DNA from: an uncultured Pseudomonadota bacterium
Lineage (GTDB): Bacteria > Pseudomonadota > Alphaproteobacteria > Rs-D84
NCBI GenBank assembly: GCA_947307295.1
Contig: CAMZIQ010000002.1
Span: 80,621-144,620 of the forward strand
Length of the DNA: 64,000 nucleotides
Direction of reading: 5' to 3'
Shown here: in pieces, positions 5,365 through 21,140 of the stretch
How positions within the stretch are numbered: the stretch's first letter is position 1
How the letters are laid out: every line of letters begins with the position of its first letter
The notes under the pieces: model-generated
What the model saw: the letters and a program-made list of their open reading frames with translations, nothing else
What the model was told of the DNA's origin: nothing
Database searches by the model: none
Position numbers and translations under genes: made by a program

Positions 5365-5370
5365 CACTGA

Positions 5371-5398: not shown

Positions 5399-5511
5399 AT
5401 AAAATCGCTTTTTTTTGCTTTGGTGGCTTTTAGATATAATTTGCTATAGCATCCCCTTTTCACCTACAGTATACTCTAGAGCATGCTCCAAATATGCTCC
5501 TAAATGGTGTT

Positions 5512-5721
5512 TTAGTAGTGTTTATTGGCAAATTTATCTATTCTAATTCGTTTTCCCCATGAATTTACAACAATAACATCTTCACCACTATGAAAAACAT
5601 CACGAGGTTTGTGGAATTCGAGTCTTCGACCACCAATTTGTTTGACTATTACATCATCGTCTTTCCAACGGTATCTCAAATTGCTTTTTGTTTGCATGTT
5701 TAAACCTCTTACTATGATCAT
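5512..5721 (-). CDS. hypothetical small protein (69 aa) at the element left end
   Basis: ORF conserved in both element copies. No motif recognised. Confidence 0.35.
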   Translation of the reverse strand: MIIVRGLNMQTKSNLRYRWKDDDVIVKQIGGRRLEFHKPRDVFHSGEDVIVVNSWGKRIRIDKFANKHY

Positions 5722-5823
5722 TAGAACTAAATTTGGTGCAGATTTTTACCATAAAAGGAATAAAAACACACATTTTAGAGTATAAATATTGTGTAAACAC
5801 TGTTTTCGTGTTATAATTGCTAC

Positions 5824-6975
5824 ATGTTTTATGATGTACAACCGATTCAGAATAAAGAAGACTATAAAAGAATGTTGACTCTTGTAGGTCAGCTTTCGAA
5901 TCTTTTTTCTGAGAGCGATTGTCCTTATTTATCTTACAGGGCTCATGAAAATATATTTTGTAGATTTTTGGGAGCAGAGAATTTAGCCAGATCTGATTGT
6001 TCTGCTGATGCCAAGAAAGATAAAGTTGGTGTTGGTTTGAAAACGTGGATGGGTAACAATGATCAGAAGGTTGCAGAATTTGGGCGTTTGAAGAATAGTT
6101 ATGCTAGTCTTTCTGGAATTGAATTAGTAAAGAAAATAGCTGAATACAGGAATGAACGCATCAGAATTACAAAGAGGTTACATGGATTAGATTCTATGAT
6201 ATACCATGTTGTAAAACGTGTTCCCGGAGCTATGCAAATTCTTGAGGGTGTGTTTGACGAGATAAATATAGAAAACATCACATTATTATCAAACACTGGG
6301 AACGATAACAACACATACTTTACTGATGGAAAACACAAATATCATTTTAGCACATCAAAAAACACTCTGTATATGATATTTGATTTTCTTGAACAGTTGG
6401 ATTCTTTTGAGGTAAAAATATTAGAAAATCCTTATGAATGGTTGTCGAAAGCTACAGATAAAAAAACTATTTCCAAAGACATCAAGAAAGTTGTCAAAGC
6501 TATACAAGAGGAATCAGCAAGAAAACCCCAATTATGTTTGAGATTATATTCGGTAAAGAAGGGTGAAAGGTTTGTTGCTGAGAAGAGTGGTTTAAATCAG
6601 TGGAACGCATCAGGAAGAGCAAGGAATCCTAATGAGTTATATATACCATACCCTAAGGAAGACAGAGACAGAATTCCTAATTTCTTTCCACCAAGAGACA
6701 CACCTTTTACACTACATTTGCCAGATGGTACAGCTATTTCTGCTAAAGTGTGCCAAGCAGACAACAAGGCTATAATGAGTAATCCTAACAGTTTATTGGG
6801 CAAATGGCTTTTGCGAGATGTGTTTGAATTGCCAGATAATACTTTAGTAACATATCAAATGTTAGAAAGGTTTGGTATAGATAGTGTGATTTTCACTAGA
6901 AATGCAGAATTAGATTATTCCGTAGAATTTTCAGAATTGGGCACTTATGAACGTTTTTATGAGATTGAAGACTAA
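5824..6975 (+). CDS. candidate Type II restriction endonuclease (383 aa) directly upstream of the C5-MTase
   Basis: Context only: co-oriented and 45 bp upstream of a Dcm-type MTase on a mobile element. No unambiguous PD-(D/E)xK motif. TATAAT (5812-5817) ends 6 nt before the ATG, suggesting a leaderless transcript. Confidence 0.45.
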   Translation: MFYDVQPIQNKEDYKRMLTLVGQLSNLFSESDCPYLSYRAHENIFCRFLGAENLARSDCSADAKKDKVGVGLKTWMGNNDQKVAEFGRLKNSYASLSGIELVKKIAEYRNERIRITKRLHGLDSMIYHVVKRVPGAMQILEGVFDEINIENITLLSNTGNDNNTYFTDGKHKYHFSTSKNTLYMIFDFLEQLDSFEVKILENPYEWLSKATDKKTISKDIKKVVKAIQEESARKPQLCLRLYSVKKGERFVAEKSGLNQWNASGRARNPNELYIPYPKEDRDRIPNFFPPRDTPFTLHLPDGTAISAKVCQADNKAIMSNPNSLLGKWLLRDVFELPDNTLVTYQMLERFGIDSVIFTRNAELDYSVEFSELGTYERFYEIED

Positions 6976-7017
6976 AAGAGTTTTTGGTTTTTTTATTTTA
7001 TTTTTTTTTGTTTTATT

Positions 7018-7035
7018 TTATTGCGGCGTGCCGCA
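7018..7035. promoter_or_regulatory. perfect palindrome ATTGCGGCGTGCCGCAAT between the R and M genes (attenuator or operator candidate)
   Basis: 8-bp arms ttgcggcg/cgccgcaa, preceded by a long T-rich tract and followed by tttat. A TAAAAT -10-like box and RBS aggag for the MTase lie downstream. Confidence 0.35.
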
Positions 7036-8067
7036 ATTTATGATAGAGTAAAATATGGTTACAGACACAGGAGTTTAAATATGTATACAATAGCATCGTT
7101 TTTTGCCGGTGTTGGTGGCATAGACTTAGGTTTTGAACAAACTAATAAATGCAAAACAATCTATGCTAATGAGTTTGATAGTTATGCAAGTGAGACGTTT
7201 GAAAAAAATTTTCCCGATGTCAAAGTTGATCAACGAGATATACATGATGTGCCTGAAAAAGATATACCAAATGTTGATATTTTTATAGGCGGTTTTCCAT
7301 GTCAGGCATTTTCTATAGCCGGCTACAGACGTGGCTTTGAGGACGAGAAAGGTAGAGGAAATTTGTTTTTTGAGCTTGTTCGTATGATGAAGGCAAAAAA
7401 ACCTCGTGTTGCGTTGTTTGAAAATGTAAAAAATTTAGTTAGCCACGACAAAGGGAATACGTTTCGTGTGATTTGTAATGAGTTGGAAAAATTGGGTTAT
7501 TATTATACATATCATGTTTTGAATGCCATGGATTATGGGAATATGGCTCAAAACAGGGAACGTATATATATAGTAGCATTCAAAAATAAGAAAGATTTTA
7601 TAAAATTCAAATGGGCGAAGACGGTACCTCTAACAACAACAGTAAAAGATATTATAGATTTTACTAAGAAGGTAGACGATAGATTTTATTATACAAAGGG
7701 AAAATACAAGGGTGATATATATGAAAGGCTTGTTGAAGCTACAAAAGGTGACGATCCTAAAAATCCGGCAATATACCAATGGCGTAGAAAATATGTTAGA
7801 AAAAACAAAAGTGGAGTGGTGCCAACTCTAACAGCTAATCAAGGTGAAGGTGGTCATAATGTTTGTATTGTAAAAACAAAATATGGTTTGAGAAAAATGA
7901 CCCCTCAAGAATGCTTTAATACCCAAGGCTTTCCAAAAACGTTTTTGTTACCAAAGCAAAGCGATGCACGTTTATATAAGCAGGCTGGCAATTCTGTTTG
8001 TGTACCGGTTATACACAATATAGCAGAAAACATAGTAACAGCTTTGTCTGACGGCGAAGATAGCTAG
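7021..8067 (+). CDS. DNA (cytosine-5)-methyltransferase, Dcm/HhaI-like; true start probably ATG at 7081 (MYTIASFF) after RBS aggag
   Basis: Motif I FAGVGG, motif IV GGFPCQAFS, motif VI ENVKNL, motif VIII QNRERIYIVAF, motif X GNSV. Short TRD (~328 aa total) as in M.HhaI and M.HaeIII. Confidence 0.9.
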   Translation: MRRAAIYDRVKYGYRHRSLNMYTIASFFAGVGGIDLGFEQTNKCKTIYANEFDSYASETFEKNFPDVKVDQRDIHDVPEKDIPNVDIFIGGFPCQAFSIAGYRRGFEDEKGRGNLFFELVRMMKAKKPRVALFENVKNLVSHDKGNTFRVICNELEKLGYYYTYHVLNAMDYGNMAQNRERIYIVAFKNKKDFIKFKWAKTVPLTTTVKDIIDFTKKVDDRFYYTKGKYKGDIYERLVEATKGDDPKNPAIYQWRRKYVRKNKSGVVPTLTANQGEGGHNVCIVKTKYGLRKMTPQECFNTQGFPKTFLLPKQSDARLYKQAGNSVCVPVIHNIAENIVTALSDGEDS

Positions 8068-8224
8068 AGCTCTTAGTGCGTAGCTGAGATTGTGTAATTA
8101 TTGCAGGCACAACAAAAACTTGAAAAATGTAAGTAACGTGGTATATTTAATGTGAGTACTCGTAAGTGTGCTTGTGACATTAGATAGCGGAACGGGTTTG
8201 ATCACCCAAGTACTAGTCTAGATA

Positions 8225-8346
8225 GTGTCCCAACCGAATGGTTGGGATGCCTTGTGCTATACAATAGGTCTTACCGACTAAAAGCCTTGGGGTTCTGTAC
8301 TTGAATTGATCAACATCCCAACCGCCTAATAAAGCGGTTGTTTTTT
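8225..8346 (+). repeat. divergent copy (C) of a CCAACC-N-GGTTGG leader-like repeat ending in hairpin aaccgc-ctaataaa-gcggtt plus T-run, immediately 5' of the Nuc-like gene
   Basis: Same architecture as repeats A (23624..23816) and B (40478..40660): an internal palindrome cccaaccgaatggttggg, about 85 nt, then ccaaccgcc-loop-gcgg plus Ts. Confidence 0.5.
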
Positions 8347-8871
8347 ATGTTGAAAGCTACTGGATGTTTTTTGTTTTTGATTCTTATATTTGAATTGGTT
8401 GCATGTAATCAAAATGCTATACAACCAATTCAAGAAAACCATAATGATATAAAGATATTTTTTACTCCCGGCACAGAATGTGAAAATAATATTATTGAAA
8501 GAATAAACCAATCAAAAAAAGTGGACATAGCTGTTTATTCAATTACAAACCCTGCTATTACAAAGGCTATTATTTCTGCATATAAACATGGGGTAAATGT
8601 AAGAATTGTGACAGATAAAACACAAGCATCAGGAAAAAAATCATTAGTCTCTCAAATACGTGCTGCCGGAATACCTGTTTTGACTAATAAAAAACACAAG
8701 ATAGAACATAATAAGTTTGCTGTTTTTGACGATGTACATGTTGTTTCTGGATCTTATAACTGGACAACAAACGCAACCAACTATAACAGTGAAAATTGCC
8801 TATTCTTTGATCAACCAGACATGGAATATTCTAAAAGATTTGAGTATCTATGGAAGGTTTATAGTGAATAG
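8338..8871 (+). CDS. Nuc-like phospholipase-D-family (HKD) endonuclease with lipoprotein signal peptide; start likely ATG at 8347
   Basis: HNKFAVFDD HxK(x4)D motif followed by SGSYNWT (PLD/Nuc family). N-terminus MLKATGCFLFLILIFELVAC has the lipobox LVAC. Size ~175 aa, as for pKM101 Nuc. Confidence 0.8.
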   Translation: MFFMLKATGCFLFLILIFELVACNQNAIQPIQENHNDIKIFFTPGTECENNIIERINQSKKVDIAVYSITNPAITKAIISAYKHGVNVRIVTDKTQASGKKSLVSQIRAAGIPVLTNKKHKIEHNKFAVFDDVHVVSGSYNWTTNATNYNSENCLFFDQPDMEYSKRFEYLWKVYSE

Positions 8872-8872
8872 C

Positions 8873-10558
8873 CTAGTAGTATATTTTAAATCCATCGTCT
8901 GTACCCAACTCTTCTATCACATTTTGTATTCTTTTTATTGTTATTTGATCTACTGTTTGAAATCCTGCTTTGCCTTCTATGGATTTTGGATCAACTTTTT
9001 CTGGTATCTGAGAGACGATAAAGTTGAAATTTGTACCTTCTTGTTTGTTTTTTAGCAAGCAGGCATGACTAACTACAGATGCTCCACCATACATCTCAAA
9101 TATCACCCCGGATCGTTGCCCAATAAGATCCAAAAGCATAGTTATAAGTTTTACCGGTTTTTTTGATCCACTAAATGATATATGACCTTCATTTTGTAGT
9201 GTTGATTTAGTGTCTGAAACATCCCATATATCACCTAAAATAACAGAATTTTTCAAGGATCCATCTTCTTGTTTTATAAGGCTATCGCTAAAACGCAAAT
9301 ATAAGGCGTTTTTAGAGCCTTTTTCTAGTAACTTGCCCTTGTACTCGAATATAGGGTCTAAATCGTCTCTATGGGCATAAAAAACGCTTTTATAAGCATT
9401 TGATTTGGGGTAAACAGCTTTGTATAGGTCTTTTGCTATAGTATTGTACATATAATGTTTGAATTCTGGCTCTATTTTGATCATTTTTTCTATGTTTTTA
9501 GATAATAGTTCCATGTTGTGCTTTTTGAATAAGTTTATTATATGAGGTTGCTGTTTCAGGTGGTCAATCAAATATATTTTTTCGTGCACTCCAAAAGTCG
9601 AATTTGGTTTTTTGATAAGATGCTTAAAGGAGTTTTGCCAGTAAGTACTAGATGGAGTGTATAAACGTTGCAGGTGATTTACTTTTGATTTGTCTTTTGC
9701 ATATACTAATAAATAGGATTTTAGTCCGGGTAATCTGTATTGAGTCCTAGATACAATAATAGATGCAGGGGTGCTTGTTTTTATGACGATGTTGTTTATA
9801 AAGTTTTCTCTACCGTATACAGAATCCATAAGCACTTTTACATACGCCATTTCGTGCTCACTTACAGATAGAGCAACAAGTCCGTCTGGTTGAAGAAGTT
9901 TTTTTACTAATTCAAGGCGAGGAAAAAGGTGCTCTAAAAGCTGGCACGTTCCGTCAAATGAAGAATTATATGCTAATACAGCTCTGTTTGATGGCATGTT
10001 AAAGGGTATGTCCCCGTATGCAAGTAACAGTTTTCCTGAGTATTCTGGTAAGAGCCATTTACAAGCATCTATATTATCTTTCACTAGAACAAGATTTTTA
10101 GATTTTTCATTATTTGGTAAGGAGTTGAAAGATTTGTTTGGGTGAAATTTGACTTTTGTTGGAGTGTTTGTTAGTTTTTCTGCCCTTTCTCTTCCATTAA
10201 AGTATAGAAATAGTCCGTTTTTGTTTTGTGTTTGTGTGGTGTTGTTTTTAAAGTCTTCTAGCGATCCAATTATTCCTTCGTATCTATACAGTTGCCCCCA
10301 TTTTTTACCATTTTCAACTTTGCTTATAATTCCGGTGTTGCAGAGAAGTTTGAGTGTGTTGGTGATGGTTGGTCTTGGGATTTTTGTTTGTTTGCATAAA
10401 GTTGTGATGTCGAGTTGAGGGGTTTTGCAAAAAGTATCAAATATGGCTAATGCTGTGTTTTTTGATCTACCAATGTTTTCTATTTTTGCTCGATCTGTAG
10501 ATATAATTTCTGTATTGAATGTATTTATTGTTTTTCTGATGGTTTGTTTTTTTATCAT
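8873..10558 (-). CDS. winged-HTH fused to a divergent N6/N4 amino-methyltransferase-like domain (PF01555-like fold with degenerate catalytic and SAM motifs)
   Basis: N-terminal wHTH-like segment AIFDTFCKTPQLDITTLCKQTKIPRPTITNTLKLLCNTGIISK. Motif IV position reads LLLAYGDIPFNMP (DIPF rather than DPPY). Typical post-motif segments: LQPDGLVALSVSEH..., NNIVIKT, YLLVYAKDKSK. C-terminal motif I position reads GVIFEMYGGASVV rather than VLDPFxGSGTT. Confidence 0.65.
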   Translation of the reverse strand: MIKKQTIRKTINTFNTEIISTDRAKIENIGRSKNTALAIFDTFCKTPQLDITTLCKQTKIPRPTITNTLKLLCNTGIISKVENGKKWGQLYRYEGIIGSLEDFKNNTTQTQNKNGLFLYFNGRERAEKLTNTPTKVKFHPNKSFNSLPNNEKSKNLVLVKDNIDACKWLLPEYSGKLLLAYGDIPFNMPSNRAVLAYNSSFDGTCQLLEHLFPRLELVKKLLQPDGLVALSVSEHEMAYVKVLMDSVYGRENFINNIVIKTSTPASIIVSRTQYRLPGLKSYLLVYAKDKSKVNHLQRLYTPSSTYWQNSFKHLIKKPNSTFGVHEKIYLIDHLKQQPHIINLFKKHNMELLSKNIEKMIKIEPEFKHYMYNTIAKDLYKAVYPKSNAYKSVFYAHRDDLDPIFEYKGKLLEKGSKNALYLRFSDSLIKQEDGSLKNSVILGDIWDVSDTKSTLQNEGHISFSGSKKPVKLITMLLDLIGQRSGVIFEMYGGASVVSHACLLKNKQEGTNFNFIVSQIPEKVDPKSIEGKAGFQTVDQITIKRIQNVIEELGTDDGFKIYY

Positions 10559-10577
10559 GGTACGCTCTCTCTTGAAT

Positions 10578-10604
10578 CATTATTTTTTATAGCAGAAAAT
10601 AATG
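10578..10604. promoter_or_regulatory. 9-bp-stem inverted repeat cattatttt-N9-aaaataatg 20 bp upstream of the MTase-like gene
   Basis: Perfect inverted repeat seen directly. Lies in the divergent intergenic region between the MTase-like gene (-) and the AlpA-like gene (+). Confidence 0.3.
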
Positions 10605-10692
10605 AATAATGCCAATCTAAAAAAAATAACAAAGTATACATTTTTATCATAATTTTGAGTTCTAATATACATACAAAAAAGGATCTATACTA

Positions 10693-10875
10693 ATGCTAAC
10701 AAAACCAGAATTCACACAAGAAAAACTATTGACGGTTACAGAGGCAGCTAATATTTTGAATTTAAAACCTTCTACCTTATACCGTATCAAACAAAATGAA
10801 AGGTCTCCCAAAAAGGTCAAAGTTTGTGGCAGGCTTTATTTTACTCTTTCTTCTATAAACAACATAATGGGCTAA
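10693..10875 (+). CDS. AlpA-like HTH DNA-binding protein (prophage regulatory / excisionase family)
   Basis: LLTVTEAANILNLKPSTLYR helix-turn-helix and the GRLYF / SINNI C-terminal pattern of the AlpA family. RBS aagga 8 nt upstream. Convergently overlaps the 3' end of the Rep gene by ~100 bp. Confidence 0.65.
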   Translation: MLTKPEFTQEKLLTVTEAANILNLKPSTLYRIKQNERSPKKVKVCGRLYFTLSSINNIMG

Positions 10876-11709
10876 TCTCTTTTCTAATATCTTTCTCAAT
10901 TTGTTTATGGGGTTTGGTAAGAGTAATTCGCCACGTTGTTTGAGCCATAAAGCAAAGATAATGACGGTTTTCAGTTGCTTTATATCAAAATAATTCACTT
11001 TATGTGGGTTGAATCTCTCTTTGCCAAACCAAGTCTTCATTGTAAACAGCTCACTACCTTCGTTGATATGTGGATCTTCGTTGTCTTTTAATTCTTTGAC
11101 AAGGTAAGCACAAATTCCCTCTTTATCATAAACACATCTCAAATCAAAAACGGTCTTATAAAACTTATATTTATCAACGATTTTACTAATTGCATCACAT
11201 AATCTGTAGCCAATATATTCGTCATGATCTGTACTTTTGAAGAGAATATGAACATGCCACCAAAAATCATTCTTACCATGTTCCATTACACCAACACATT
11301 GTAAAGCGTTTCTAGTCCAATGATTTTTTTGTTCTATGGCAAGAGTTTGAATTTCTTTGAATAATTTTTTATAAGATTTTTTAGCGTCTTCTCTGTTTCT
11401 TGTTCTTCTAAAACCGGATTGGGTGCATCTGGGTAGTTTGATTGTCAAAAGATAAGAATAGTCTTCTTGCATTAGTTGTTTTTGCCAATATTTCCTAGAG
11501 TCTTGATATTCAGTTTGGTGATTCCTATAAAAACCATTCAATTCTTCATTTATCTCATTTGTAAATTTAGACATGATTTCCTCTAGCGTTCTAAACCTTC
11601 TTCTTATTTTCAATCCACGTTCTTCCACATAAAACGTTCTTCTTTTTATTGTTTTACTTAGTTGGGAATGTTGAACATCTAAATTAGAAAATAAATCATA
11701 ACCATTCAT
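10777..11709 (-). CDS. HUH-superfamily rolling-circle Rep / MobT-like relaxase candidate (310 aa)
   Basis: WWHVHILF (HUH motif) followed by Tyr-containing segments (DEYIGYRL, ICAYLVKELK), as in Rep_trans/MobT proteins. Divergent from the regulator gene across a promoter/operator region. Confidence 0.55.
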   Translation of the reverse strand: MNGYDLFSNLDVQHSQLSKTIKRRTFYVEERGLKIRRRFRTLEEIMSKFTNEINEELNGFYRNHQTEYQDSRKYWQKQLMQEDYSYLLTIKLPRCTQSGFRRTRNREDAKKSYKKLFKEIQTLAIEQKNHWTRNALQCVGVMEHGKNDFWWHVHILFKSTDHDEYIGYRLCDAISKIVDKYKFYKTVFDLRCVYDKEGICAYLVKELKDNEDPHINEGSELFTMKTWFGKERFNPHKVNYFDIKQLKTVIIFALWLKQRGELLLPNPINKLRKILEKRLAHYVVYRRKSKIKPATNFDLFGRPFILFDTV

Positions 11710-11971
11710 TTATTACCTTCTTGGTTTACTTTGTTTAATGAATGATCAACACACCTTTTGTTTTGGGTGCTAATCAGTTTGAATCAAAAAGCCCGGATTT
11801 ATAAGGGTTGAAGCGTAATCCAATCCAACAGGAGCGATTTGATTTATTTCCTAGAACTGTTTTTTTTCATAAAGTTGTAAAATTTTTCATTCTTTGTGAT
11901 TTTTTTGAGGAACGATTCGTAAAAAAAGACAAATTCGATACAAAAATAGGTGTTTTTTCTGGCAGGAGGCA

Positions 11972-12029
11972 AGTGTATACACTTTGTGTATAAAAAATAC
12001 TTGACATCGGTACACAAAAAGTGTATACT
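11972..12029 (+). promoter_or_regulatory. switch region: consensus sigma70 promoter (TTGACA 12001-12006, 17 bp spacer, TATACT 12024-12029) with GTGTAYAC operator repeats, including the 12-bp palindrome AGTGTATACACT at 11972-11983
   Basis: Sequence read directly. Operator-like motifs at 11972-83, 11986-93, 12008-15 (inverted) and 12019-29 overlap the -35 and -10 boxes. RBS aaagaggtg then ATG of the HTH regulator. Confidence 0.6.
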
Positions 12030-12058
12030 GTAGCTGTAACAAAAACAAAAGAGGTGTT

Positions 12059-12601
12059 TTGATGGAAAAATATAGAACAAAGTTTGGTACATGGATCTCT
12101 GTATTTTGTGCCAGACATGGATTAAACATCGCAAGGGCTGCTTATGAATTGGGGTTGGCTCCTACTACATTGGCATCTATTGTAGCTGGAAGACATCCTT
12201 TACCGGTGTTCTTGCGTGAAAATATCATAGCGACTTTCGGAAGATATTTGTCCGGAACAGATATTGCCGAAATGGATCAAAGCATTGTTGATACAGAGGC
12301 AGGAGCTGTGATTGTGTCAAGGAACTATAAAAAATACGTCAGTGCACAAACAGTGAATGACAAAGAATGGTGTCTAAAACTGATGGATGTAATGGCTAAA
12401 GCGACCAATAAAATGAACAAGGAGGAATCTGAAGAAATTTATGCTCGTTTGCAAGAGATTGCTGAACGCCCTGCACCAGTATCTATAGAATTAGACAAAG
12501 ATATAGATATTGAAACGCTGAGACAAGATATTCGCAGACGGTATAAAGACCCTGTAAAAACAGAACAAATTGTAGAAAAAATAAAAGAACTGAGACAATA
12601 A
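12059..12601 (+). CDS. XRE/Cro-like HTH transcriptional regulator (element repressor candidate), acidic coiled-coil C-terminus
   Basis: N-terminal HTH WISVFCARHGLNIARAAYELGLAPTTLASIVAGRH. Immediately downstream of the operator-rich promoter. Confidence 0.6.
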   Translation: MMEKYRTKFGTWISVFCARHGLNIARAAYELGLAPTTLASIVAGRHPLPVFLRENIIATFGRYLSGTDIAEMDQSIVDTEAGAVIVSRNYKKYVSAQTVNDKEWCLKLMDVMAKATNKMNKEESEEIYARLQEIAERPAPVSIELDKDIDIETLRQDIRRRYKDPVKTEQIVEKIKELRQ

Positions 12602-12715
12602 AAAATAAAGTGGGTGAACAAGCTGCAACCTGCTCACCCTAACAAACACCAAACGAGTTGGATGTCTGCCACAAAGTCATTTTAGCTCGTTTGGATCAAA
12701 AATCAAGAACCAAAG

Positions 12716-14029
12716 GTGACTAAAATGAGCAAACAAGAAAATATTACACAAACATTAGTAAATAAAATCGTATACAACATCGAAAAAGGCAACACGTCTG
12801 AATTATGTGATGTGTGGGATTCTAAGACATCAGGTTTTGGTATACGAGTTGGCAAAACCAATGCATCTTTTATTTTCAAATATAGAAATAAGGCAAACAA
12901 AGCCCAAACAAAAACATTTGGTAAAATAACCGAAATGTCTGTTGCTGAGGCTAGAAATCTATTGGACGCATTTAAACCAACAATAAAATCTGATCTTGCA
13001 ACAATTCAGAAAACTAATAAGAAATATACGGTGAAAGATTTATGTGAAAAATATCTTGCGGAACACCAAACTCGTGCAACAACGAAAAAACAAGACGAAA
13101 GCAGGATTGAAAGACACGTCTTGCCAACACTTGGCAACATACCATTACATTTATTGACAGCTAAAGATATTATGAATGCACAAACGGCTATTGCAAACGG
13201 TGATAAAAAAATAATTATAGCAGGACATAAAAACCCAAATAATCCACATTCATATATCAAAGTATCTGGCGGTCAAGGTGCTGCTAAAAGGGTTATGGAA
13301 ATGCTGAAAACAATTTTGAATTTTGCAGAAGACGAAGAGTTGATTGAAAAAAATCCTATGAATTCTCGTAAATTCAAAAAAATCAAATACGATAAAAAAG
13401 AAACAGCGTATCTCGAAAACAACAATTATGAAAATCTTGGTTATTTGTTGAAAAAGCATGAACAGCAATCAAAGAAAAGCAATCAAAGTGTGTTGTTTAT
13501 AAAATTATTGGCTTTGACGGGCTGTCGTAAAGGTGAATTATTAGGTCTTACTTGGAATCGAGTAGATTTTACCAACCAATATTTTGTGTTTGCTAAAACA
13601 AAAACTACAGGGGAACAAAAACGATATTTTGGATCTGCAGCAAAAAGATTATTGTTAGATATGCACCAAAAAGCTACATCCAACTACTTGTTCCCTAGTA
13701 TTACAAAAACAGGTACACATAGAAAAGATTGTTTGAGAGCTTTAAAGCAGATTTGTAAAACAGCACAAGAAAACAAAAGTCAATTTGATGCAATACAAAA
13801 ACTAACCCTACATGGTCTTAGACATTCATTTTCAACAATGTGTAACACCCTCTCTTTTCCCGATGTAATTAGAGAAGGACTTATGGGGCACAAGAATGGT
13901 GGTGTACAATATATTTATACACACAATACACATAACACAATGATTGAACATGCAGATAAAGTATCAGAAAGTATCAACACGTTGTTAGATACGGGATGTA
14001 AAAAAGCAGAATTGGAAAACAACAACTAA
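12716..14029 (+). CDS. int: tyrosine recombinase / phage integrase (P4-like, DUF4102 N-terminus); start possibly ATG 12725
   Basis: Box I LTGCRKGELLGLTWNRVD (Arg), box II HGLRHSF (H-x-x-R), and catalytic Tyr in HKNGGVQYIYTH. Adjacent to the tRNA att site. Confidence 0.92.
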   Translation: MTKMSKQENITQTLVNKIVYNIEKGNTSELCDVWDSKTSGFGIRVGKTNASFIFKYRNKANKAQTKTFGKITEMSVAEARNLLDAFKPTIKSDLATIQKTNKKYTVKDLCEKYLAEHQTRATTKKQDESRIERHVLPTLGNIPLHLLTAKDIMNAQTAIANGDKKIIIAGHKNPNNPHSYIKVSGGQGAAKRVMEMLKTILNFAEDEELIEKNPMNSRKFKKIKYDKKETAYLENNNYENLGYLLKKHEQQSKKSNQSVLFIKLLALTGCRKGELLGLTWNRVDFTNQYFVFAKTKTTGEQKRYFGSAAKRLLLDMHQKATSNYLFPSITKTGTHRKDCLRALKQICKTAQENKSQFDAIQKLTLHGLRHSFSTMCNTLSFPDVIREGLMGHKNGGVQYIYTHNTHNTMIEHADKVSESINTLLDTGCKKAELENNN

Positions 14030-14041
14030 AGAGGTAAAAAA

Positions 14042-14263
14042 ATGAAATTTATAACAGAAAGAGAATTAGCTAAATTTTTATCGAATGAATATGGTTTGCC
14101 AACATCGAAAAAATCATTAGAAAAATTACGTGCAAAAGGTAAAGCACCAAATTTTAGAGTTTGGGGTGGAAAAATTGTATATGAAAAGCAAGATGTACAG
14201 ACATGGCTCAACAATCAAATGGCGATTTGTTACAAGTACACAATGCCAAAATATAGCATATAA
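14042..14263 (+). CDS. excisionase-like HTH protein (HTH_17/AlpA-Xis family)
   Basis: ITERELAKFL ... NFRVWGGKIVYEKQDVQTWL pattern. Immediately follows the integrase, with RBS gaggtaaaaaaATG. Confidence 0.55.
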   Translation: MKFITERELAKFLSNEYGLPTSKKSLEKLRAKGKAPNFRVWGGKIVYEKQDVQTWLNNQMAICYKYTMPKYSI

Positions 14264-14273
14264 AAAAAGCAAA

Positions 14274-14291
14274 ATGCTCCCAATATGCTCC
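14274..14291 (+). promoter_or_regulatory. pair of ATGCTCC direct repeats 11 bp apart at the element right end (putative integrase/Xis arm-type sites); equivalent pair at the left end, 5483-5500
   Basis: atgctcc at 14274-80 and 14285-91. atgctcc at 5483-89 and 5494-5500. Same orientation and spacing (one helical turn) at both arms. Confidence 0.35.
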
Positions 14292-14340
14292 AAAATGATA
14301 AAAACCACAAAACTAACACAAACACTAGAGAATCAAAAAA

Positions 14341-14367
14341 CCCCGGAAATCCGGGGTAAATCTTTTT
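14341..14367 (+). terminator. Rho-independent terminator after xis (ccccgg-aaat-ccgggg then T-run)
   Basis: Hairpin and tctttttgtt read directly. Last feature before att. Confidence 0.5.
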
Positions 14368-14398
14368 GTTGGGGGGCTAAAATCTTCATAACGAATTT

Positions 14399-14446
14399 CA
14401 CGATGTCAACGTGACGCTCTAGCCAACTGAGCTAACCACCCAAAGC
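14399..14446. repeat. att core copy 2 (junction between the two element units; partial tRNA-Val 5' half)
   Basis: Exact 48-bp direct repeat. Preceded by the element right end and followed by the element left end. Confidence 0.85.
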
Positions 14447-14593
14447 CACTGAATTATAACATCTAAATTCTAGAATGCAAATAAAATCGCTTTTTTTTGC
14501 TTTGGTGGCTTTTAGATATAATTTGCTATAGCATCCCCTTTTCACCTACAGTATACTCTAGAGCATGCTCCAAATATGCTCCTAAATGGTGTT

Positions 14594-14803
14594 TTAGTAG
14601 TGTTTATTGGCAAATTTATCTATTCTAATTCGTTTTCCCCATGAATTTACAACAATAACATCTTCACCACTATGAAAAACATCACGAGGTTTGTGGAATT
14701 CGAGTCTTCGACCACCAATTTGTTTGACTATTACATCATCGTCTTTCCAACGGTATCTCAAATTGCTTTTTGTTTGCATGTTTAAACCTCTTACTATGAT
14801 CAT
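14594..14803 (-). CDS. hypothetical small protein (copy 2 of 5512..5721)
   Basis: Identical translation at offset +9082. Confidence 0.35.
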   Translation of the reverse strand: MIIVRGLNMQTKSNLRYRWKDDDVIVKQIGGRRLEFHKPRDVFHSGEDVIVVNSWGKRIRIDKFANKHY

Positions 14804-14905
14804 TAGAACTAAATTTGGTGCAGATTTTTACCATAAAAGGAATAAAAACACACATTTTAGAGTATAAATATTGTGTAAACACTGTTTTCGTGTTATAATT
14901 GCTAC

Positions 14906-16057
14906 ATGTTTTATGATGTACAACCGATTCAGAATAAAGAAGACTATAAAAGAATGTTGACTCTTGTAGGTCAGCTTTCGAATCTTTTTTCTGAGAGCGA
15001 TTGTCCTTATTTATCTTACAGGGCTCATGAAAATATATTTTGTAGATTTTTGGGAGCAGAGAATTTAGCCAGATCTGATTGTTCTGCTGATGCCAAGAAA
15101 GATAAAGTTGGTGTTGGTTTGAAAACGTGGATGGGTAACAATGATCAGAAGGTTGCAGAATTTGGGCGTTTGAAGAATAGTTATGCTAGTCTTTCTGGAA
15201 TTGAATTAGTAAAGAAAATAGCTGAATACAGGAATGAACGCATCAGAATTACAAAGAGGTTACATGGATTAGATTCTATGATATACCATGTTGTAAAACG
15301 TGTTCCCGGAGCTATGCAAATTCTTGAGGGTGTGTTTGACGAGATAAATATAGAAAACATCACATTATTATCAAACACTGGGAACGATAACAACACATAC
15401 TTTACTGATGGAAAACACAAATATCATTTTAGCACATCAAAAAACACTCTGTATATGATATTTGATTTTCTTGAACAGTTGGATTCTTTTGAGGTAAAAA
15501 TATTAGAAAATCCTTATGAATGGTTGTCGAAAGCTACAGATAAAAAAACTATTTCCAAAGACATCAAGAAAGTTGTCAAAGCTATACAAGAGGAATCAGC
15601 AAGAAAACCCCAATTATGTTTGAGATTATATTCGGTAAAGAAGGGTGAAAGGTTTGTTGCTGAGAAGAGTGGTTTAAATCAGTGGAACGCATCAGGAAGA
15701 GCAAGGAATCCTAATGAGTTATATATACCATACCCTAAGGAAGACAGAGACAGAATTCCTAATTTCTTTCCACCAAGAGACACACCTTTTACACTACATT
15801 TGCCAGATGGTACAGCTATTTCTGCTAAAGTGTGCCAAGCAGACAACAAGGCTATAATGAGTAATCCTAACAGTTTATTGGGCAAATGGCTTTTGCGAGA
15901 TGTGTTTGAATTGCCAGATAATACTTTAGTAACATATCAAATGTTAGAAAGGTTTGGTATAGATAGTGTGATTTTCACTAGAAATGCAGAATTAGATTAT
16001 TCCGTAGAATTTTCAGAATTGGGCACTTATGAACGTTTTTATGAGATTGAAGACTAA
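14906..16057 (+). CDS. candidate Type II restriction endonuclease (copy 2)
   Basis: Identical translation at offset +9082. Confidence 0.45.
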   Translation: MFYDVQPIQNKEDYKRMLTLVGQLSNLFSESDCPYLSYRAHENIFCRFLGAENLARSDCSADAKKDKVGVGLKTWMGNNDQKVAEFGRLKNSYASLSGIELVKKIAEYRNERIRITKRLHGLDSMIYHVVKRVPGAMQILEGVFDEINIENITLLSNTGNDNNTYFTDGKHKYHFSTSKNTLYMIFDFLEQLDSFEVKILENPYEWLSKATDKKTISKDIKKVVKAIQEESARKPQLCLRLYSVKKGERFVAEKSGLNQWNASGRARNPNELYIPYPKEDRDRIPNFFPPRDTPFTLHLPDGTAISAKVCQADNKAIMSNPNSLLGKWLLRDVFELPDNTLVTYQMLERFGIDSVIFTRNAELDYSVEFSELGTYERFYEIED

Positions 16058-16102
16058 AAGAGTTTTTGGTTTTTTTATTTTATTTTTTTTTGTTTTATTT
16101 TA

Positions 16103-17149
16103 TTGCGGCGTGCCGCAATTTATGATAGAGTAAAATATGGTTACAGACACAGGAGTTTAAATATGTATACAATAGCATCGTTTTTTGCCGGTGTTGGTGG
16201 CATAGACTTAGGTTTTGAACAAACTAATAAATGCAAAACAATCTATGCTAATGAGTTTGATAGTTATGCAAGTGAGACGTTTGAAAAAAATTTTCCCGAT
16301 GTCAAAGTTGATCAACGAGATATACATGATGTGCCTGAAAAAGATATACCAAATGTTGATATTTTTATAGGCGGTTTTCCATGTCAGGCATTTTCTATAG
16401 CCGGCTACAGACGTGGCTTTGAGGACGAGAAAGGTAGAGGAAATTTGTTTTTTGAGCTTGTTCGTATGATGAAGGCAAAAAAACCTCGTGTTGCGTTGTT
16501 TGAAAATGTAAAAAATTTAGTTAGCCACGACAAAGGGAATACGTTTCGTGTGATTTGTAATGAGTTGGAAAAATTGGGTTATTATTATACATATCATGTT
16601 TTGAATGCCATGGATTATGGGAATATGGCTCAAAACAGGGAACGTATATATATAGTAGCATTCAAAAATAAGAAAGATTTTATAAAATTCAAATGGGCGA
16701 AGACGGTACCTCTAACAACAACAGTAAAAGATATTATAGATTTTACTAAGAAGGTAGACGATAGATTTTATTATACAAAGGGAAAATACAAGGGTGATAT
16801 ATATGAAAGGCTTGTTGAAGCTACAAAAGGTGACGATCCTAAAAATCCGGCAATATACCAATGGCGTAGAAAATATGTTAGAAAAAACAAAAGTGGAGTG
16901 GTGCCAACTCTAACAGCTAATCAAGGTGAAGGTGGTCATAATGTTTGTATTGTAAAAACAAAATATGGTTTGAGAAAAATGACCCCTCAAGAATGCTTTA
17001 ATACCCAAGGCTTTCCAAAAACGTTTTTGTTACCAAAGCAAAGCGATGCACGTTTATATAAGCAGGCTGGCAATTCTGTTTGTGTACCGGTTATACACAA
17101 TATAGCAGAAAACATAGTAACAGCTTTGTCTGACGGCGAAGATAGCTAG
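16103..17149 (+). CDS. DNA (cytosine-5)-methyltransferase (copy 2; start probably 16163)
   Basis: Identical translation at offset +9082, with the same m5C motifs. Confidence 0.9.
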   Translation: MRRAAIYDRVKYGYRHRSLNMYTIASFFAGVGGIDLGFEQTNKCKTIYANEFDSYASETFEKNFPDVKVDQRDIHDVPEKDIPNVDIFIGGFPCQAFSIAGYRRGFEDEKGRGNLFFELVRMMKAKKPRVALFENVKNLVSHDKGNTFRVICNELEKLGYYYTYHVLNAMDYGNMAQNRERIYIVAFKNKKDFIKFKWAKTVPLTTTVKDIIDFTKKVDDRFYYTKGKYKGDIYERLVEATKGDDPKNPAIYQWRRKYVRKNKSGVVPTLTANQGEGGHNVCIVKTKYGLRKMTPQECFNTQGFPKTFLLPKQSDARLYKQAGNSVCVPVIHNIAENIVTALSDGEDS

Positions 17150-17306
17150 AGCTCTTAGTGCGTAGCTGAGATTGTGTAATTATTGCAGGCACAACAAAAA
17201 CTTGAAAAATGTAAGTAACGTGGTATATTTAATGTGAGTACTCGTAAGTGTGCTTGTGACATTAGATAGCGGAACGGGTTTGATCACCCAAGTACTAGTC
17301 TAGATA

Positions 17307-17428
17307 GTGTCCCAACCGAATGGTTGGGATGCCTTGTGCTATACAATAGGTCTTACCGACTAAAAGCCTTGGGGTTCTGTACTTGAATTGATCAACATCC
17401 CAACCGCCTAATAAAGCGGTTGTTTTTT
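17307..17428 (+). repeat. leader-like repeat C (copy 2) ending in a terminator hairpin at the Nuc-like start
   Basis: Identical to 8225..8346 at +9082. Confidence 0.5.
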
Positions 17429-17953
17429 ATGTTGAAAGCTACTGGATGTTTTTTGTTTTTGATTCTTATATTTGAATTGGTTGCATGTAATCAAAATGCT
17501 ATACAACCAATTCAAGAAAACCATAATGATATAAAGATATTTTTTACTCCCGGCACAGAATGTGAAAATAATATTATTGAAAGAATAAACCAATCAAAAA
17601 AAGTGGACATAGCTGTTTATTCAATTACAAACCCTGCTATTACAAAGGCTATTATTTCTGCATATAAACATGGGGTAAATGTAAGAATTGTGACAGATAA
17701 AACACAAGCATCAGGAAAAAAATCATTAGTCTCTCAAATACGTGCTGCCGGAATACCTGTTTTGACTAATAAAAAACACAAGATAGAACATAATAAGTTT
17801 GCTGTTTTTGACGATGTACATGTTGTTTCTGGATCTTATAACTGGACAACAAACGCAACCAACTATAACAGTGAAAATTGCCTATTCTTTGATCAACCAG
17901 ACATGGAATATTCTAAAAGATTTGAGTATCTATGGAAGGTTTATAGTGAATAG
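17420..17953 (+). CDS. Nuc-like PLD-family endonuclease lipoprotein (copy 2)
   Basis: Identical translation at offset +9082. Confidence 0.8.
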   Translation: MFFMLKATGCFLFLILIFELVACNQNAIQPIQENHNDIKIFFTPGTECENNIIERINQSKKVDIAVYSITNPAITKAIISAYKHGVNVRIVTDKTQASGKKSLVSQIRAAGIPVLTNKKHKIEHNKFAVFDDVHVVSGSYNWTTNATNYNSENCLFFDQPDMEYSKRFEYLWKVYSE

Positions 17954-17954
17954 C

Positions 17955-19640
17955 CTAGTAGTATATTTTAAATCCATCGTCTGTACCCAACTCTTCTATC
18001 ACATTTTGTATTCTTTTTATTGTTATTTGATCTACTGTTTGAAATCCTGCTTTGCCTTCTATGGATTTTGGATCAACTTTTTCTGGTATCTGAGAGACGA
18101 TAAAGTTGAAATTTGTACCTTCTTGTTTGTTTTTTAGCAAGCAGGCATGACTAACTACAGATGCTCCACCATACATCTCAAATATCACCCCGGATCGTTG
18201 CCCAATAAGATCCAAAAGCATAGTTATAAGTTTTACCGGTTTTTTTGATCCACTAAATGATATATGACCTTCATTTTGTAGTGTTGATTTAGTGTCTGAA
18301 ACATCCCATATATCACCTAAAATAACAGAATTTTTCAAGGATCCATCTTCTTGTTTTATAAGGCTATCGCTAAAACGCAAATATAAGGCGTTTTTAGAGC
18401 CTTTTTCTAGTAACTTGCCCTTGTACTCGAATATAGGGTCTAAATCGTCTCTATGGGCATAAAAAACGCTTTTATAAGCATTTGATTTGGGGTAAACAGC
18501 TTTGTATAGGTCTTTTGCTATAGTATTGTACATATAATGTTTGAATTCTGGCTCTATTTTGATCATTTTTTCTATGTTTTTAGATAATAGTTCCATGTTG
18601 TGCTTTTTGAATAAGTTTATTATATGAGGTTGCTGTTTCAGGTGGTCAATCAAATATATTTTTTCGTGCACTCCAAAAGTCGAATTTGGTTTTTTGATAA
18701 GATGCTTAAAGGAGTTTTGCCAGTAAGTACTAGATGGAGTGTATAAACGTTGCAGGTGATTTACTTTTGATTTGTCTTTTGCATATACTAATAAATAGGA
18801 TTTTAGTCCGGGTAATCTGTATTGAGTCCTAGATACAATAATAGATGCAGGGGTGCTTGTTTTTATGACGATGTTGTTTATAAAGTTTTCTCTACCGTAT
18901 ACAGAATCCATAAGCACTTTTACATACGCCATTTCGTGCTCACTTACAGATAGAGCAACAAGTCCGTCTGGTTGAAGAAGTTTTTTTACTAATTCAAGGC
19001 GAGGAAAAAGGTGCTCTAAAAGCTGGCACGTTCCGTCAAATGAAGAATTATATGCTAATACAGCTCTGTTTGATGGCATGTTAAAGGGTATGTCCCCGTA
19101 TGCAAGTAACAGTTTTCCTGAGTATTCTGGTAAGAGCCATTTACAAGCATCTATATTATCTTTCACTAGAACAAGATTTTTAGATTTTTCATTATTTGGT
19201 AAGGAGTTGAAAGATTTGTTTGGGTGAAATTTGACTTTTGTTGGAGTGTTTGTTAGTTTTTCTGCCCTTTCTCTTCCATTAAAGTATAGAAATAGTCCGT
19301 TTTTGTTTTGTGTTTGTGTGGTGTTGTTTTTAAAGTCTTCTAGCGATCCAATTATTCCTTCGTATCTATACAGTTGCCCCCATTTTTTACCATTTTCAAC
19401 TTTGCTTATAATTCCGGTGTTGCAGAGAAGTTTGAGTGTGTTGGTGATGGTTGGTCTTGGGATTTTTGTTTGTTTGCATAAAGTTGTGATGTCGAGTTGA
19501 GGGGTTTTGCAAAAAGTATCAAATATGGCTAATGCTGTGTTTTTTGATCTACCAATGTTTTCTATTTTTGCTCGATCTGTAGATATAATTTCTGTATTGA
19601 ATGTATTTATTGTTTTTCTGATGGTTTGTTTTTTTATCAT
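17955..19640 (-). CDS. wHTH plus degenerate amino-MTase-like protein (copy 2)
   Basis: Identical translation at offset +9082. Confidence 0.65.
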   Translation of the reverse strand: MIKKQTIRKTINTFNTEIISTDRAKIENIGRSKNTALAIFDTFCKTPQLDITTLCKQTKIPRPTITNTLKLLCNTGIISKVENGKKWGQLYRYEGIIGSLEDFKNNTTQTQNKNGLFLYFNGRERAEKLTNTPTKVKFHPNKSFNSLPNNEKSKNLVLVKDNIDACKWLLPEYSGKLLLAYGDIPFNMPSNRAVLAYNSSFDGTCQLLEHLFPRLELVKKLLQPDGLVALSVSEHEMAYVKVLMDSVYGRENFINNIVIKTSTPASIIVSRTQYRLPGLKSYLLVYAKDKSKVNHLQRLYTPSSTYWQNSFKHLIKKPNSTFGVHEKIYLIDHLKQQPHIINLFKKHNMELLSKNIEKMIKIEPEFKHYMYNTIAKDLYKAVYPKSNAYKSVFYAHRDDLDPIFEYKGKLLEKGSKNALYLRFSDSLIKQEDGSLKNSVILGDIWDVSDTKSTLQNEGHISFSGSKKPVKLITMLLDLIGQRSGVIFEMYGGASVVSHACLLKNKQEGTNFNFIVSQIPEKVDPKSIEGKAGFQTVDQITIKRIQNVIEELGTDDGFKIYY

Positions 19641-21111: not shown

Positions 21112-21140
21112 GTAGCTGTAACAAAAACAAAAGAGGTGTT

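Follow-up and report, generated by a model that had tools for sequence, protein, structure and literature searches.

A probable autorepressor-operator switch in the integrase module of a small restriction-modification island from a ruminant-gut alphaproteobacterium

A promoter overlapped by palindromic dyads lies immediately upstream of a gene for a 179-aa regulator with a predicted XRE-type fold. Judged from sequence, this region fairly likely controls a mobile-island module made up of the regulator, integrase and excisionase-like genes, and works as an autorepressor-operator switch. It would probably be an ordinary kind of genetic switch operated by a previously undescribed protein family. 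The region was analysed within a 64-kb stretch of DNA, referred to here as the window.

The element that carries the region is a small integrative island with swappable restriction-modification cargo and is not a phage or prophage. As assembled, it is present as two perfect tandem copies of 9,082 bp each (5317 to 23528) within tRNA-Val(gac), and 48-bp att cores at 5317-5364, 14399-14446 and 23481-23528 bound both copies. Because the element is tandemly duplicated, the operator-promoter region is present twice, with the second, identical copy on the plus strand at 21054 to 21113, offset by 9082 bp. The host is a ruminant-gut alphaproteobacterial MAG; the original prediction had called it endosymbiont-like, a status that is not demonstrable.

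A Conserved Promoter Overlapped by Dyads

The regulator promoter is comprised of a -35 hexamer TTGACA (12001 to 12006) and a -10 hexamer TATACT (12024 to 12029) on the plus strand, as originally described. It matches the consensus at 11 of 12 positions, and its 17-nt spacer is within the 16-18 nt of sigma-70 promoters with near-consensus hexamers. Between 8000 and 16500 it is the top-scoring site. TTGACA lies 61 nt from the regulator start codon, an ATG at 12062 that follows the Shine-Dalgarno sequence AAGAGGTG (12049-12056), and transcription is predicted to start near 12036. A promoter of this quality had been called rare. Three sites with at least 11 of 12 matches were observed where 3.3 are expected, so that the argument from rarity is weak; the match by itself is at chance level, and the weight rests on conservation. 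A near-consensus promoter is retained 59-63 nt from the ATG in nine lineages, and its position before the regulator gene is fixed in all relatives. Eight of the nine carry TTGAC[AT]-16/17-TAnAnT with TTGAC[AT] at the same distance from the ATG, while L010 has TTGATT-16-TAATAT; across the relatives the -10 hexamer is kept as TATACT, TATAAT, TACAAT or TAATAT.

Several dyads are arranged around this promoter. O1 is a perfect 12-bp dyad, AGTGTATACACT (AGTG-TATA-CACT; 11972 to 11983), centred near -58.5. It overlaps a 17-bp palindrome, TATACAC-TTT-GTGTATA (11976 to 11992), that reaches into the next half-site, GTGTATA at 11986-11992; 7-nt arms, a 3-nt spacer and half-site centres 10 bp apart are found in all four class-A lineages (the window, L011, L001 and L002). 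O2 is a partial dyad, TGTG-TATA-AAAA (11985 to 11996), with 8 of 12 positions identical to O1, and an A-tract runs from it to the -35 hexamer. The putative operator itself overlaps the regulator's core promoter: O3, AGTG-TATA-CTGT (12020 to 12031; 10 of 12 positions as in O1), contains the -10 hexamer, and in class-B relatives the dyad is in the spacer. Just 3' of the -10 hexamer is an O4-like site, GCTGTAACAAAA (12033 to 12044), of which CTGTAA is invariant. The 27-nt unit at 11971-97 is repeated directly at 12019-45 with 74% identity, and the O4-like site lies in its second half. Since 12 bp is short for the site of a classical HTH dimer, the unit that is actually bound may instead be the 17-bp palindrome or the 27-nt repeat. 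At -58 and -45, O1 and O2 occupy positions that activators use as well, so that regulation through them may be of either sign.

Exact GTGTAYAC occurs at 11973-80 (plus), 11975-82 (minus) and 12021-28 (plus). Of the four half-site copies originally reported, including the perfect palindrome, those in AGTGTATACACT, GTGTATA and O3 stood. The fourth, GTACAC in the promoter spacer (12010 to 12015), is not conserved, being replaced by GTATAC, GTAAGC or GTAAAC in L011, L001 and L002. The motif search proposed in the original prediction found other GTGTAYAC copies in the 64 kb only in the duplicate-element region at 21055-21110. The clustering is far beyond chance. With the duplicate element copy removed, four copies of GTGTATA fall within 60 bp, compared with a maximum of 2 in 1000 dinucleotide shuffles. 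A relaxed dyad search of the window (up to 3 mismatches) returned 24 sites against 25.7 expected and no enrichment. The exact 21-nt operator block was not found in IMG/VR.

The dyads are conserved where their surroundings are not. The block AAGTGTATACACTTTGTGTATAAAAAA (11971-11997), CTTGACA and the stretch CAAAAAGTGTATACTG that covers O3 are invariant in the four class-A lineages, O1 included, and the regulator proteins of these lineages are only 69-73% identical. No invariant stretch in the intergenic region is longer than the 27-nt dyad-bearing block, which includes O2, and the flanking intergenic DNA is unalignable. The class-A sample holds only four independent sequences. In every lineage, dyads lie upstream of the -35 hexamer and inside or adjoining the core promoter, and L022 carries the dyad TCTTTATAAAGA at the position matching O1.

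A Divergent XRE-Type Regulator

The 179-aa regulator (12062 to 12601, plus strand) contains an N-terminal XRE-type HTH at residues ~7-62, with the recognition helix APTTLASIVAG, followed by a helical C-terminal part of ~115 aa. In the AlphaFold model, residues 7-62 have a pLDDT of ~80 and form helices at 7-18, 23-29, 34-41 and 51-62; the predicted fold is lambda-repressor-like, with the HTH at helices 2 and 3. The best Foldseek matches in the PDB are almost all XRE proteins, among them ClgR, HigA, C.BclI, C.Esp1396I and SinR. These matches to the predicted structure have a probability of ~1 and a target TM-score of 0.55-0.72, with E-values of only 0.05-0.3. The XRE-like label and the place of the promoter ahead of this gene both agree with the original prediction.

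Sequence searches with the regulator gave nothing significant in Pfam, NCBIfam, PHROGs or PDB sequences, and no HTH match in the window protein reached the Pfam or NCBIfam threshold, including those of HTH_3 (PF01381) and HTH_31 (PF13560). Similarly, tblastn against annotated phages and plasmids returned nothing significant. Distant members found with the family profile, e.g., P0015, P0017 and P0026, pass HTH_3 or HTH_31 of Pfam. Among 1.84 billion representative proteins, only 25 members of the subfamily could be detected. As modelled, the regulator is a divergent XRE-type HTH protein of a tiny, previously undescribed family.

The Integrase, the Excisionase-Like Gene and a Candidate Antisense RNA

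Downstream of the regulator gene lies a tyrosine integrase gene (12725 to 14029, plus strand) whose product has a P4-type arm-binding N-terminus; its probable start is the ATG at 12725, after AGGTGA. A 73-aa HTH_17 (excisionase/AlpA-like) gene with sub-threshold matches follows at 14042 to 14263 on the same strand, and it always comes after the integrase gene. No plus-strand terminator or promoter was found in the regulator-integrase interval. From these missing signals, and solely from them, we infer that the integrase and excisionase-like genes are transcribed together with the regulator gene. Control of excision, as originally proposed, is plausible because no plus-strand terminator separates the regulator from these co-oriented genes, which is a different reason from the one first given.

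A candidate antisense small-RNA gene occupies the minus strand between the regulator and integrase genes (12596 to 12706). It has a predicted promoter (-35 TTGATT at 12706-12701, -10 TAAAAT at 12684-12679) and would encode an RNA of ~75 nt with a 5' stem-loop, a terminator hairpin (12639-12612) and a U-run (12611-12598). The candidate is found in every lineage examined, and its conservation exceeds that of the flanking coding sequences. The hairpin at 12612-12639 was also considered as a plus-strand terminator. The plus strand has A-C mismatches and no U-run there, and the minus strand has G-U pairs and a U-run; these features fit the minus strand only, and the plus-strand terminator was therefore rejected. 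The sense transcript has a predicted hairpin of its own (12649 to 12694, plus strand), the 5' arm of which is complementary to the antisense RNA. As read on the plus strand, one of its U-G pairs is invariant, one pair shows a compensatory change from GC to AU, and several more are G-U pairs. A search of viral contigs with a loose intercistronic-hairpin pattern gave at least 120 matches, all of a chance type. In Rfam, minus-strand positions 12595-12669 match RF00236 (ctRNA_pGA1) at 17.9 bits (E = 0.13). The gathering score is 45, so the candidate is not a member of that family and the likeness is one of layout only.

The Divergent Rep Gene

The divergent gene (10777 to 11709, minus strand) encodes a 310-aa HUH-type rolling-circle Rep, which bears out its original identification. 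Its motifs IKLP, HVH and YxxKE do not vary, and HVH and Y..KE are invariant in 10 homologues, giving the HUH and catalytic Tyr motifs of this class. The predicted structure has an HUH nuclease fold and matches AAV Rep, MVM NS1 and RepB with E-values of 2e-3 to 5e-2. The Pfam search found no match of the window Rep to REP_ORF2-G2P (PF23343); among the relatives, P0038 just passes the cut-off of 27.8 bits, at 27.9, and the others fall below it. The gene is lineage-specific. About half of the lineages lack it, and HsdM or a small (62-aa) ORF stands in its place. Neither the dyad motif nor a conserved minus-strand sigma-70 promoter was found near rep, and a conserved sigma-70 promoter was likewise looked for and not found on the minus strand near the dyads. 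As Rep is lineage-specific and the motif is missing near rep, the proposed control of replication is without support. The region had also been likened to a lysogeny switch. No Cro- or Cox-like partner gene and no promoter of an opposing protein gene were found, and hence this is not a classical lysogeny switch of two repressors.

The Proposed Switch and Its Alternatives

In the proposed mechanism, transcription from the promoter would cover the regulator gene and read through into the integrase and excisionase-like genes. A regulator dimer would bind the AGTG-TATA-CACT dyads, namely O1 with the adjoining O2 half-site (~ -58 and -45) and O3. Occupancy of O3 would block RNA polymerase and result in negative autoregulation, and the operon would therefore be kept low in the integrated state. 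O1/O2 would serve as a high-affinity anchor that may aid cooperative loading of O3. The operon would fire when no repressor is present, as upon entry into a new cell, or after the repressor is inactivated, possibly by a signal that is sensed by the C-terminal part of the regulator. The conserved convergent small RNA probably dampens expression of the integrase and excisionase as a second layer of control. Autoregulation by way of palindromes is common among XRE regulators (PMC12565409).

A wider reading, which we offer as tentative, is that of a two-layer switch in an undescribed island family. An orphan XRE autorepressor and a convergent antisense RNA of ~75 nt might together gate the integrase and excisionase-like genes by transcriptional interference and RNA pairing. 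The island would shuttle interchangeable restriction-modification cassettes and, when it integrates, would supply a new promoter and 5' part for tRNA-Val in place of the old ones, leaving the 3' end as it was.

The same dyads could also be read as activator or dual-control sites, with a low level of regulator at O1/O2 stimulating the promoter and a high level at O3 repressing it, as for lambda CI at PRM and the controllers of restriction-modification systems. O1 and O2, centred near -58 and -45 and hence upstream of the -35 hexamer, would suit this arrangement, as would the grading of the sites (12/12, 8/12, 10/12), which is typical of ordered occupancy; C.BclI and C.Esp1396I, two controllers that act in this manner, are among the top fold matches. 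A promoter with 11 of 12 matches and a 17-nt spacer, however, needs no activator, and the second class-B dyad is in the spacer, a repressing position. We regard mainly activating or dual control as unlikely.

The dyads might also be sites for a protein other than the regulator, be it a host factor, the integrase through its arm-binding domain or the 73-aa excisionase/AlpA-like protein, and the 179-aa protein might act elsewhere. The same module does encode two further DNA-binding proteins, and proteins of the excisionase type, e.g., Cox of P2 and Apl of 186, are able to double as transcriptional regulators. Overall protein divergence was tried as a guide to the binder and was set aside, the regulator, integrase, excisionase-like protein and small ORF all diverging in parallel. 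Comparison of recognition helices is the sole informative test. Half-sites of the form AGTGTA go with the helix TLASIVAG, and ACTTTA or CTTTA with [TM][LM]SL[IV]x[SA]G, and the change is symmetric: relatives with the different helix carry CTTTAYAAAG-type dyads at equivalent promoter positions. The recognition helix of the excisionase-like protein is the same across operator classes; its HTH (LPTSKK.LEKLRAKGK) stays constant across differing dyads, while the helix of the regulator changes. Since the operator and the helix changed in a single evolutionary switch, this parallel is suggestive rather than statistical in pointing to the regulator as the dyad binder. Excisionase and arm sites are moreover normally direct repeats near att, whereas the dyads are palindromic, lie 2.4 kb away from the att core and occur nowhere else in the element. 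Another binder thus appears distinctly improbable, and we infer that the regulator binds the palindromic dyads.

It is very doubtful that the regulator belongs to the controllers (C proteins) of restriction-modification systems or to the antitoxin-like XRE proteins, with the dyads as C-boxes that time restriction genes or a toxin. Its fold does match C proteins and the HigA/HipB antitoxins, the island does carry restriction-modification cargo, and a 2-mismatch dyad, TGTGTAAACACT (14872-14883), lies just upstream of an NgoFVII-like endonuclease gene. This site, however, moves with the cargo cassette and not with the regulator, and relaxed matches are at chance level; on these two grounds a controller role was rejected. 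Identical regulators are found beside different restriction-modification systems. In every lineage the conserved module of regulator, integrase and excisionase-like gene stays linked while the cargo is swapped, and no toxin gene is adjacent. The protein has 179 aa compared with ~80 aa for C proteins. Membership among the C proteins was also examined by gene order: a C protein gene would be adjacent to and co-transcribed with the endonuclease gene, with C-boxes upstream of that unit, but the regulator gene always has the integrase and excisionase-like genes after it.

Lastly, it is hardly credible that there is no dedicated operator and that the repeats reflect conserved promoter architecture (a UP-like A-tract, -10-like TATAC repeats) or neutral hitch-hiking: GTGTATAC does contain a -10-like TATAC, class A has only four independent sequences and so good a promoter match arises by chance in AT-rich DNA, but the symmetry is perfect, the clustering is absent from 1000 shuffles, the block is invariant beside unalignable DNA and distant relatives carry analogous dyads of another sequence at equal positions.

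With the autorepressor-operator reading, an uncharacterised XRE subfamily gains a recognition helix and a matching candidate operator, i.e., a testable specificity pair. The natural switch of half-site from ACTTTA to AGTGTA can be used for studying the co-evolution of repressor and operator. A family of small islands also emerges from the analysis, whose members carry restriction-modification systems from one uncultured gut alphaproteobacterium to another, and the analysis brings to light a candidate antisense RNA for integrase control. The general understanding of how mobile elements are regulated is unchanged.

Comparison With Known Systems

The integrative element ICEBs1 of Bacillus subtilis, with ImmR and PimmR, also has an XRE-type HTH repressor gene first in an integrase-containing operon, and both elements integrate in a tRNA gene. 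ImmR autoregulates the immR-immA-int operon of ICEBs1 and keeps the element quiescent (PMC5812530). Unlike ICEBs1, the island contains neither an ImmA-like protease gene nor conjugation genes. Its excisionase-like gene is in the same predicted operon, whereas ICEBs1 has a divergent Pxis, and a convergent antisense RNA is predicted in the island. The relationship between the proteins extends no further than the HTH fold, and the island host is alphaproteobacterial.

The phage immunity regions of lambda, 434 and P22 (CI-OR) and of P2 (C/Cox; Pe/Pc) share with the island a strong promoter overlapped by several operator copies of graded quality, and they show the repressor autoregulation that is proposed here. 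In P2, the integrase gene is downstream of the repressor gene. P2 lysogeny needs repressor and integrase, and two converging promoters form its switch (PMC2995052). Convergent transcription in the island would come from the regulator promoter and the predicted antisense promoter, so that a candidate small RNA, and no protein, forms the opposing arm. In contrast to the phages, the island has no Cro- or Cox-like repressor gene facing the regulator, no S24 peptidase domain and no structural or lysis genes. The sites of P2 C repressor are direct repeats, whereas those of the island are palindromic.

The C proteins C.Esp1396I and C.BclI are among the best fold matches to the N-terminal domain of the regulator. 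Both they and the regulator have palindromic boxes before their own gene, with two adjacent sites of unequal strength. The island regulator differs in being twice as long and in its linkage to integrase and excisionase-like genes rather than to an endonuclease, and the cargo of the island varies independently of it.

Plasmid ctRNAs (e.g., RF00236, ctRNA_pGA1) resemble the candidate RNA of ~75 nt in being short antisense transcripts that combine an intrinsic terminator with a stem-loop at the 5' end. The match to RF00236, although weak, is full-length and on the minus strand. Both the ctRNAs and the candidate oppose the leader of a key gene, which for the plasmids is a replication gene and for the island is predicted to be the integrase gene.

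The regulator and its promoter

The best reading of the 11960-12060 region, judged by sequence comparison, is a site at which an XRE-type repressor would regulate its own promoter, which bears out the original interpretation in part. The regulator is a 179-aa protein (12062-12601, plus strand), and direct searches with it found no family. In its AlphaFold model, residues 7-62 form four helices (pLDDT ~80) and are followed by a C-terminal part of ~115 residues. The top PDB fold matches, including ClgR, HigA, C.BclI, C.Esp1396I, and SinR, are nearly all XRE-type HTH proteins (probability ~1, E-values 0.05-0.3), and distant relatives pass Pfam HTH_3 or HTH_31. Fold and transitive homology therefore support the XRE-like label of the original prediction. 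Relatives form only six 90%-identity clusters among 5.8 billion clusters, and a profile search found only 25 among 1.84 billion representatives.

The promoter region is as originally described. It comprises TTGACA (12001-12006, plus strand), a 17-nt spacer, TATACT (12024-12029), and the Shine-Dalgarno sequence AAGAGGTG (12049-12056) ahead of the regulator ATG at 12062. The 11/12 match is the top sigma-70-like site within 8000-16500. Such a promoter had been called rare for an AT-rich genome, but in this AT-rich DNA promoters of at least 11/12 occur at chance frequency (3 observed vs 3.3 expected), so the hexamer match alone proves little. In nine lineages with this regulator or a relative, a promoter close to consensus is kept at 59-63 nt from the start codon (TTGAC[AT]-16/17-TAnAnT in eight, TTGATT-16-TAATAT in L010). 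The ribosome-binding site lies in a GGTGT(G/T)TTGAT-containing stretch (12044-12063) that recurs ~100 bp upstream (11943-11956) and, inverted, in the rep leader (11745-11764; 20 nt, 80% complementary). Its core, ATCAACAC, is conserved in L002 and L011.

Putative operator dyads

The perfect 12-bp palindrome of the original account, AGTGTATACACT, occupies 11972-11983 (O1). A further GTGTATA follows at 11986-11992 (within O2, 11985-11996), and AGTGTATACTGT (O3, 12020-12031), which matches the palindrome at 10/12 positions, contains the -10 hexamer. The symmetry extends further than first described: TATACAC-TTT-GTGTATA forms a 17-bp palindrome at 11976-11992, and the 27-nt unit 11971-11997 is repeated at 12019-12045 with 74% identity. 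With the duplicated island copy removed, the four GTGTATA in 60 bp were never reached in 1000 dinucleotide-preserving shuffles (maximum 2). Four GTGTAYAC half-sites had been proposed. Three are exact and recur only in the second copy of the region (21055-21110), while the fourth, the spacer GTACAC, varies among lineages.

This variation is seen in four lineages sharing the window's recognition helix, APTTLASIVAG, whose proteins are 69-100% identical. The blocks AAGTGTATACACTTTGTGTATAAAAAA, CTTGACA, CAAAAAGTGTATACTG, and CTGTAA are invariant in all four, whereas the spacer GTACAC becomes GTATAC, GTAAGC, or GTAAAC, and the DNA immediately upstream of the blocks is unalignable. Five lineages have another helix type, [TM][LM]SL[IV]x[SA]G, and carry different dyads at corresponding positions. 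Upstream of the -35 and in the spacer, respectively, these are TCTTTATAAAGA and TTTATAAAG in L022, CTTTGTAAA and ACTTTACAAAGT in L006, and ACTTTATAAAC and again ACTTTATAAAC, ~22 bp from the first, in L018. L019 has TTTACAA upstream and twice in the core promoter (spacer and -10), and L010 has ATCTGTAAAGAT upstream and CTTTATA / TATAAAG around the -10. The half-site thus changes symmetrically from ACTTTA to AGTGTA alongside the recognition helix. As one evolutionary switch this provides no statistical argument; it is the pattern that would be expected for a dimeric repressor and its operator. The island's 73-aa protein has an HTH that stays conserved between the two operator classes, which counts against that protein as the binder.

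The divergent Rep gene and exchanged cargo

The divergent gene (10777-11709, minus strand) encodes a 310-aa rolling-circle initiator of the HUH type. Ten homologues show HVH and Y..KE without variation, relatives touch Pfam REP_ORF2-G2P, and the predicted fold has matches in AAV Rep, MVM NS1, and RepB. Nothing links the motif to rep, since no dyad or conserved promoter was found near it and the gene is missing from about half of the island family. On the strand opposite rep, a 60-aa HTH_17 (excisionase/AlpA-like) candidate ORF (10693-10875, plus strand) overlaps its 3' end; gene calling also picked up this ORF in L012.

Across relatives' contigs, the regulator, the integrase, and a 71-77-aa HTH gene form a constant module, and everything to its left varies. 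Rep and type II restriction-modification genes are found in the window, L001, and L002, and type I genes without Rep in L006-L009. The divergent neighbor is a type I methylase (HsdM) gene in L010 and L018, whose contigs are too short for more, and a 62-aa ORF in L019; the L011 contig is too short to reveal neighbors. Different cargo also stands beside identical regulators. Between the left-end small ORF and the regulator, cargo is exchanged among otherwise near-identical islands (window 5824-10558; L012 2698-8496; L006 863-7764). One variant pairs an NgoFVII-like endonuclease with a C5 methylase, another has a 462-aa gene and two Dam-like methylases, and a third is a complete type I system. 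These islands thus serve as a shuttle for restriction-modification cassettes. At the start of the endonuclease gene (5790-5826 in copy 1; 14872-14908 in copy 2), the extended -10 promoter, TGTTATAAT, ends just 7 nt before the ATG, which suggests a leaderless mRNA or another start codon. Just upstream, the palindromic TGTGTAAACACT moves with this cassette and is also present in L001.

A tandem island in a tRNA gene

Rather than a prophage, the element is an integrative island carrying restriction-modification genes. It is 9,082 bp long and occurs twice in perfect tandem (5317-14446 = 14399-23528, zero mismatches) in tRNA-Val(gac) (5283-5359, minus strand). The host is an alphaproteobacterial MAG from yak omasum, and a relative is present in Candidatus Enterousia. 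The plus strand encodes the NgoFVII-like endonuclease (5824-6975 and, in copy 2, 14906-16057; Pfam RE_NgoFVII_C), a C5 methyltransferase (7021-8067; DNA_methylase), a PLD-family nuclease (8338-8871; PLDc_2), the tyrosine integrase (12725-14029; Phage_integrase), and the 73-aa excisionase-like HTH_17 protein (14042-14263; sub-threshold Pfam match). An N6/N4 methyltransferase (8873-10558; N6_N4_Mtase) and a small ORF without family match (14594-14803) lie on the minus strand. Among six other contigs with an identical regulator (L012-L017), those of sufficient length have a single copy. Either the island re-integrated in tandem very recently, which is plausible given that it has its own Rep, or the second copy is an assembly artefact.

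In the att and tRNA regions examined (5283-5404, 14370-14486, 23472-23568), the 48-bp att core (5317-5364, 14399-14446, 23481-23528) consists of tRNA-Val positions 1-43 and 5 nt upstream. As a result, the 3' part of the intact tRNA is still the chromosomal one, and its promoter is supplied by the island (TTTGCA-17-TATAAT, minus strand, 5399-5371 and 14481-14453). The native promoter now precedes a pseudo-tRNA (27.7 bits in Rfam). Elements integrating in tRNA genes usually replace the tRNA 3' end. This unusual att arrangement and a candidate antisense module are the more original of our side observations.

A candidate antisense small RNA

The 124-nt spacer separating the regulator and integrase genes holds, in every lineage examined, an ~85-nt module that resembles a minus-strand small-RNA gene with promoter, 5' stem-loop, and intrinsic terminator (12596-12706; copy 2, 21678-21788). 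Its nucleotide identity to the window is 74-91%, vs 59-76% for flanking coding sequences. All lineages have a promoter-like TTG(A/C)(T/A)T-16/17-TA(A/G)AAT, and the predicted transcript of ~75 nt begins with the stem-loop and ends in a 12-bp GC-rich hairpin and U-run. The pairing data favor the minus strand: pairing there is 94%, ~32 G-U cells would be mismatched if read on the plus strand, and double-sided pair changes number ten cells vs 3.7 in shuffles. Facing the module, the sense strand has its own hairpin at 12649-12694, in which G-U pairs specific to the plus strand occur together with a single GC-to-AU compensatory pair. The module has no Rfam family; a full-length resemblance to ctRNA_pGA1 is sub-threshold (17.9 bits vs gathering 45). 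We interpret it as a candidate antisense RNA, directed at the integrase leader, whose transcription would converge with that from the regulator promoter. The module is identical in L010 (1345-1428) and L006 (8548-8631), whose regulators and promoter dyads differ, which suggests that island lineages have recombined here.

A proposed switch and its relatives

A conserved strong promoter precedes the regulator, with conserved dyads at ~-58/-45 and over the -10 hexamer. The regulator would repress its own promoter by occupying O3, with O1 and O2 as a putative high-affinity anchor. The same promoter may also feed the integrase and excisionase-like genes; the three genes share one orientation, and no plus-strand terminator or promoter was found among them. 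Excision and replication functions had been named as the targets. Regulation most likely acts on the downstream integrase and excisionase-like genes, and not on rep. This is not a lysogeny switch of the classical two-repressor kind, as no Cro-like partner was found. Palindrome-based autoregulation is common among XRE regulators (PMC12565409). The closest arrangement to the module found here is immR-immA-int of ICEBs1, an operon autoregulated by ImmR (PMC5812530).
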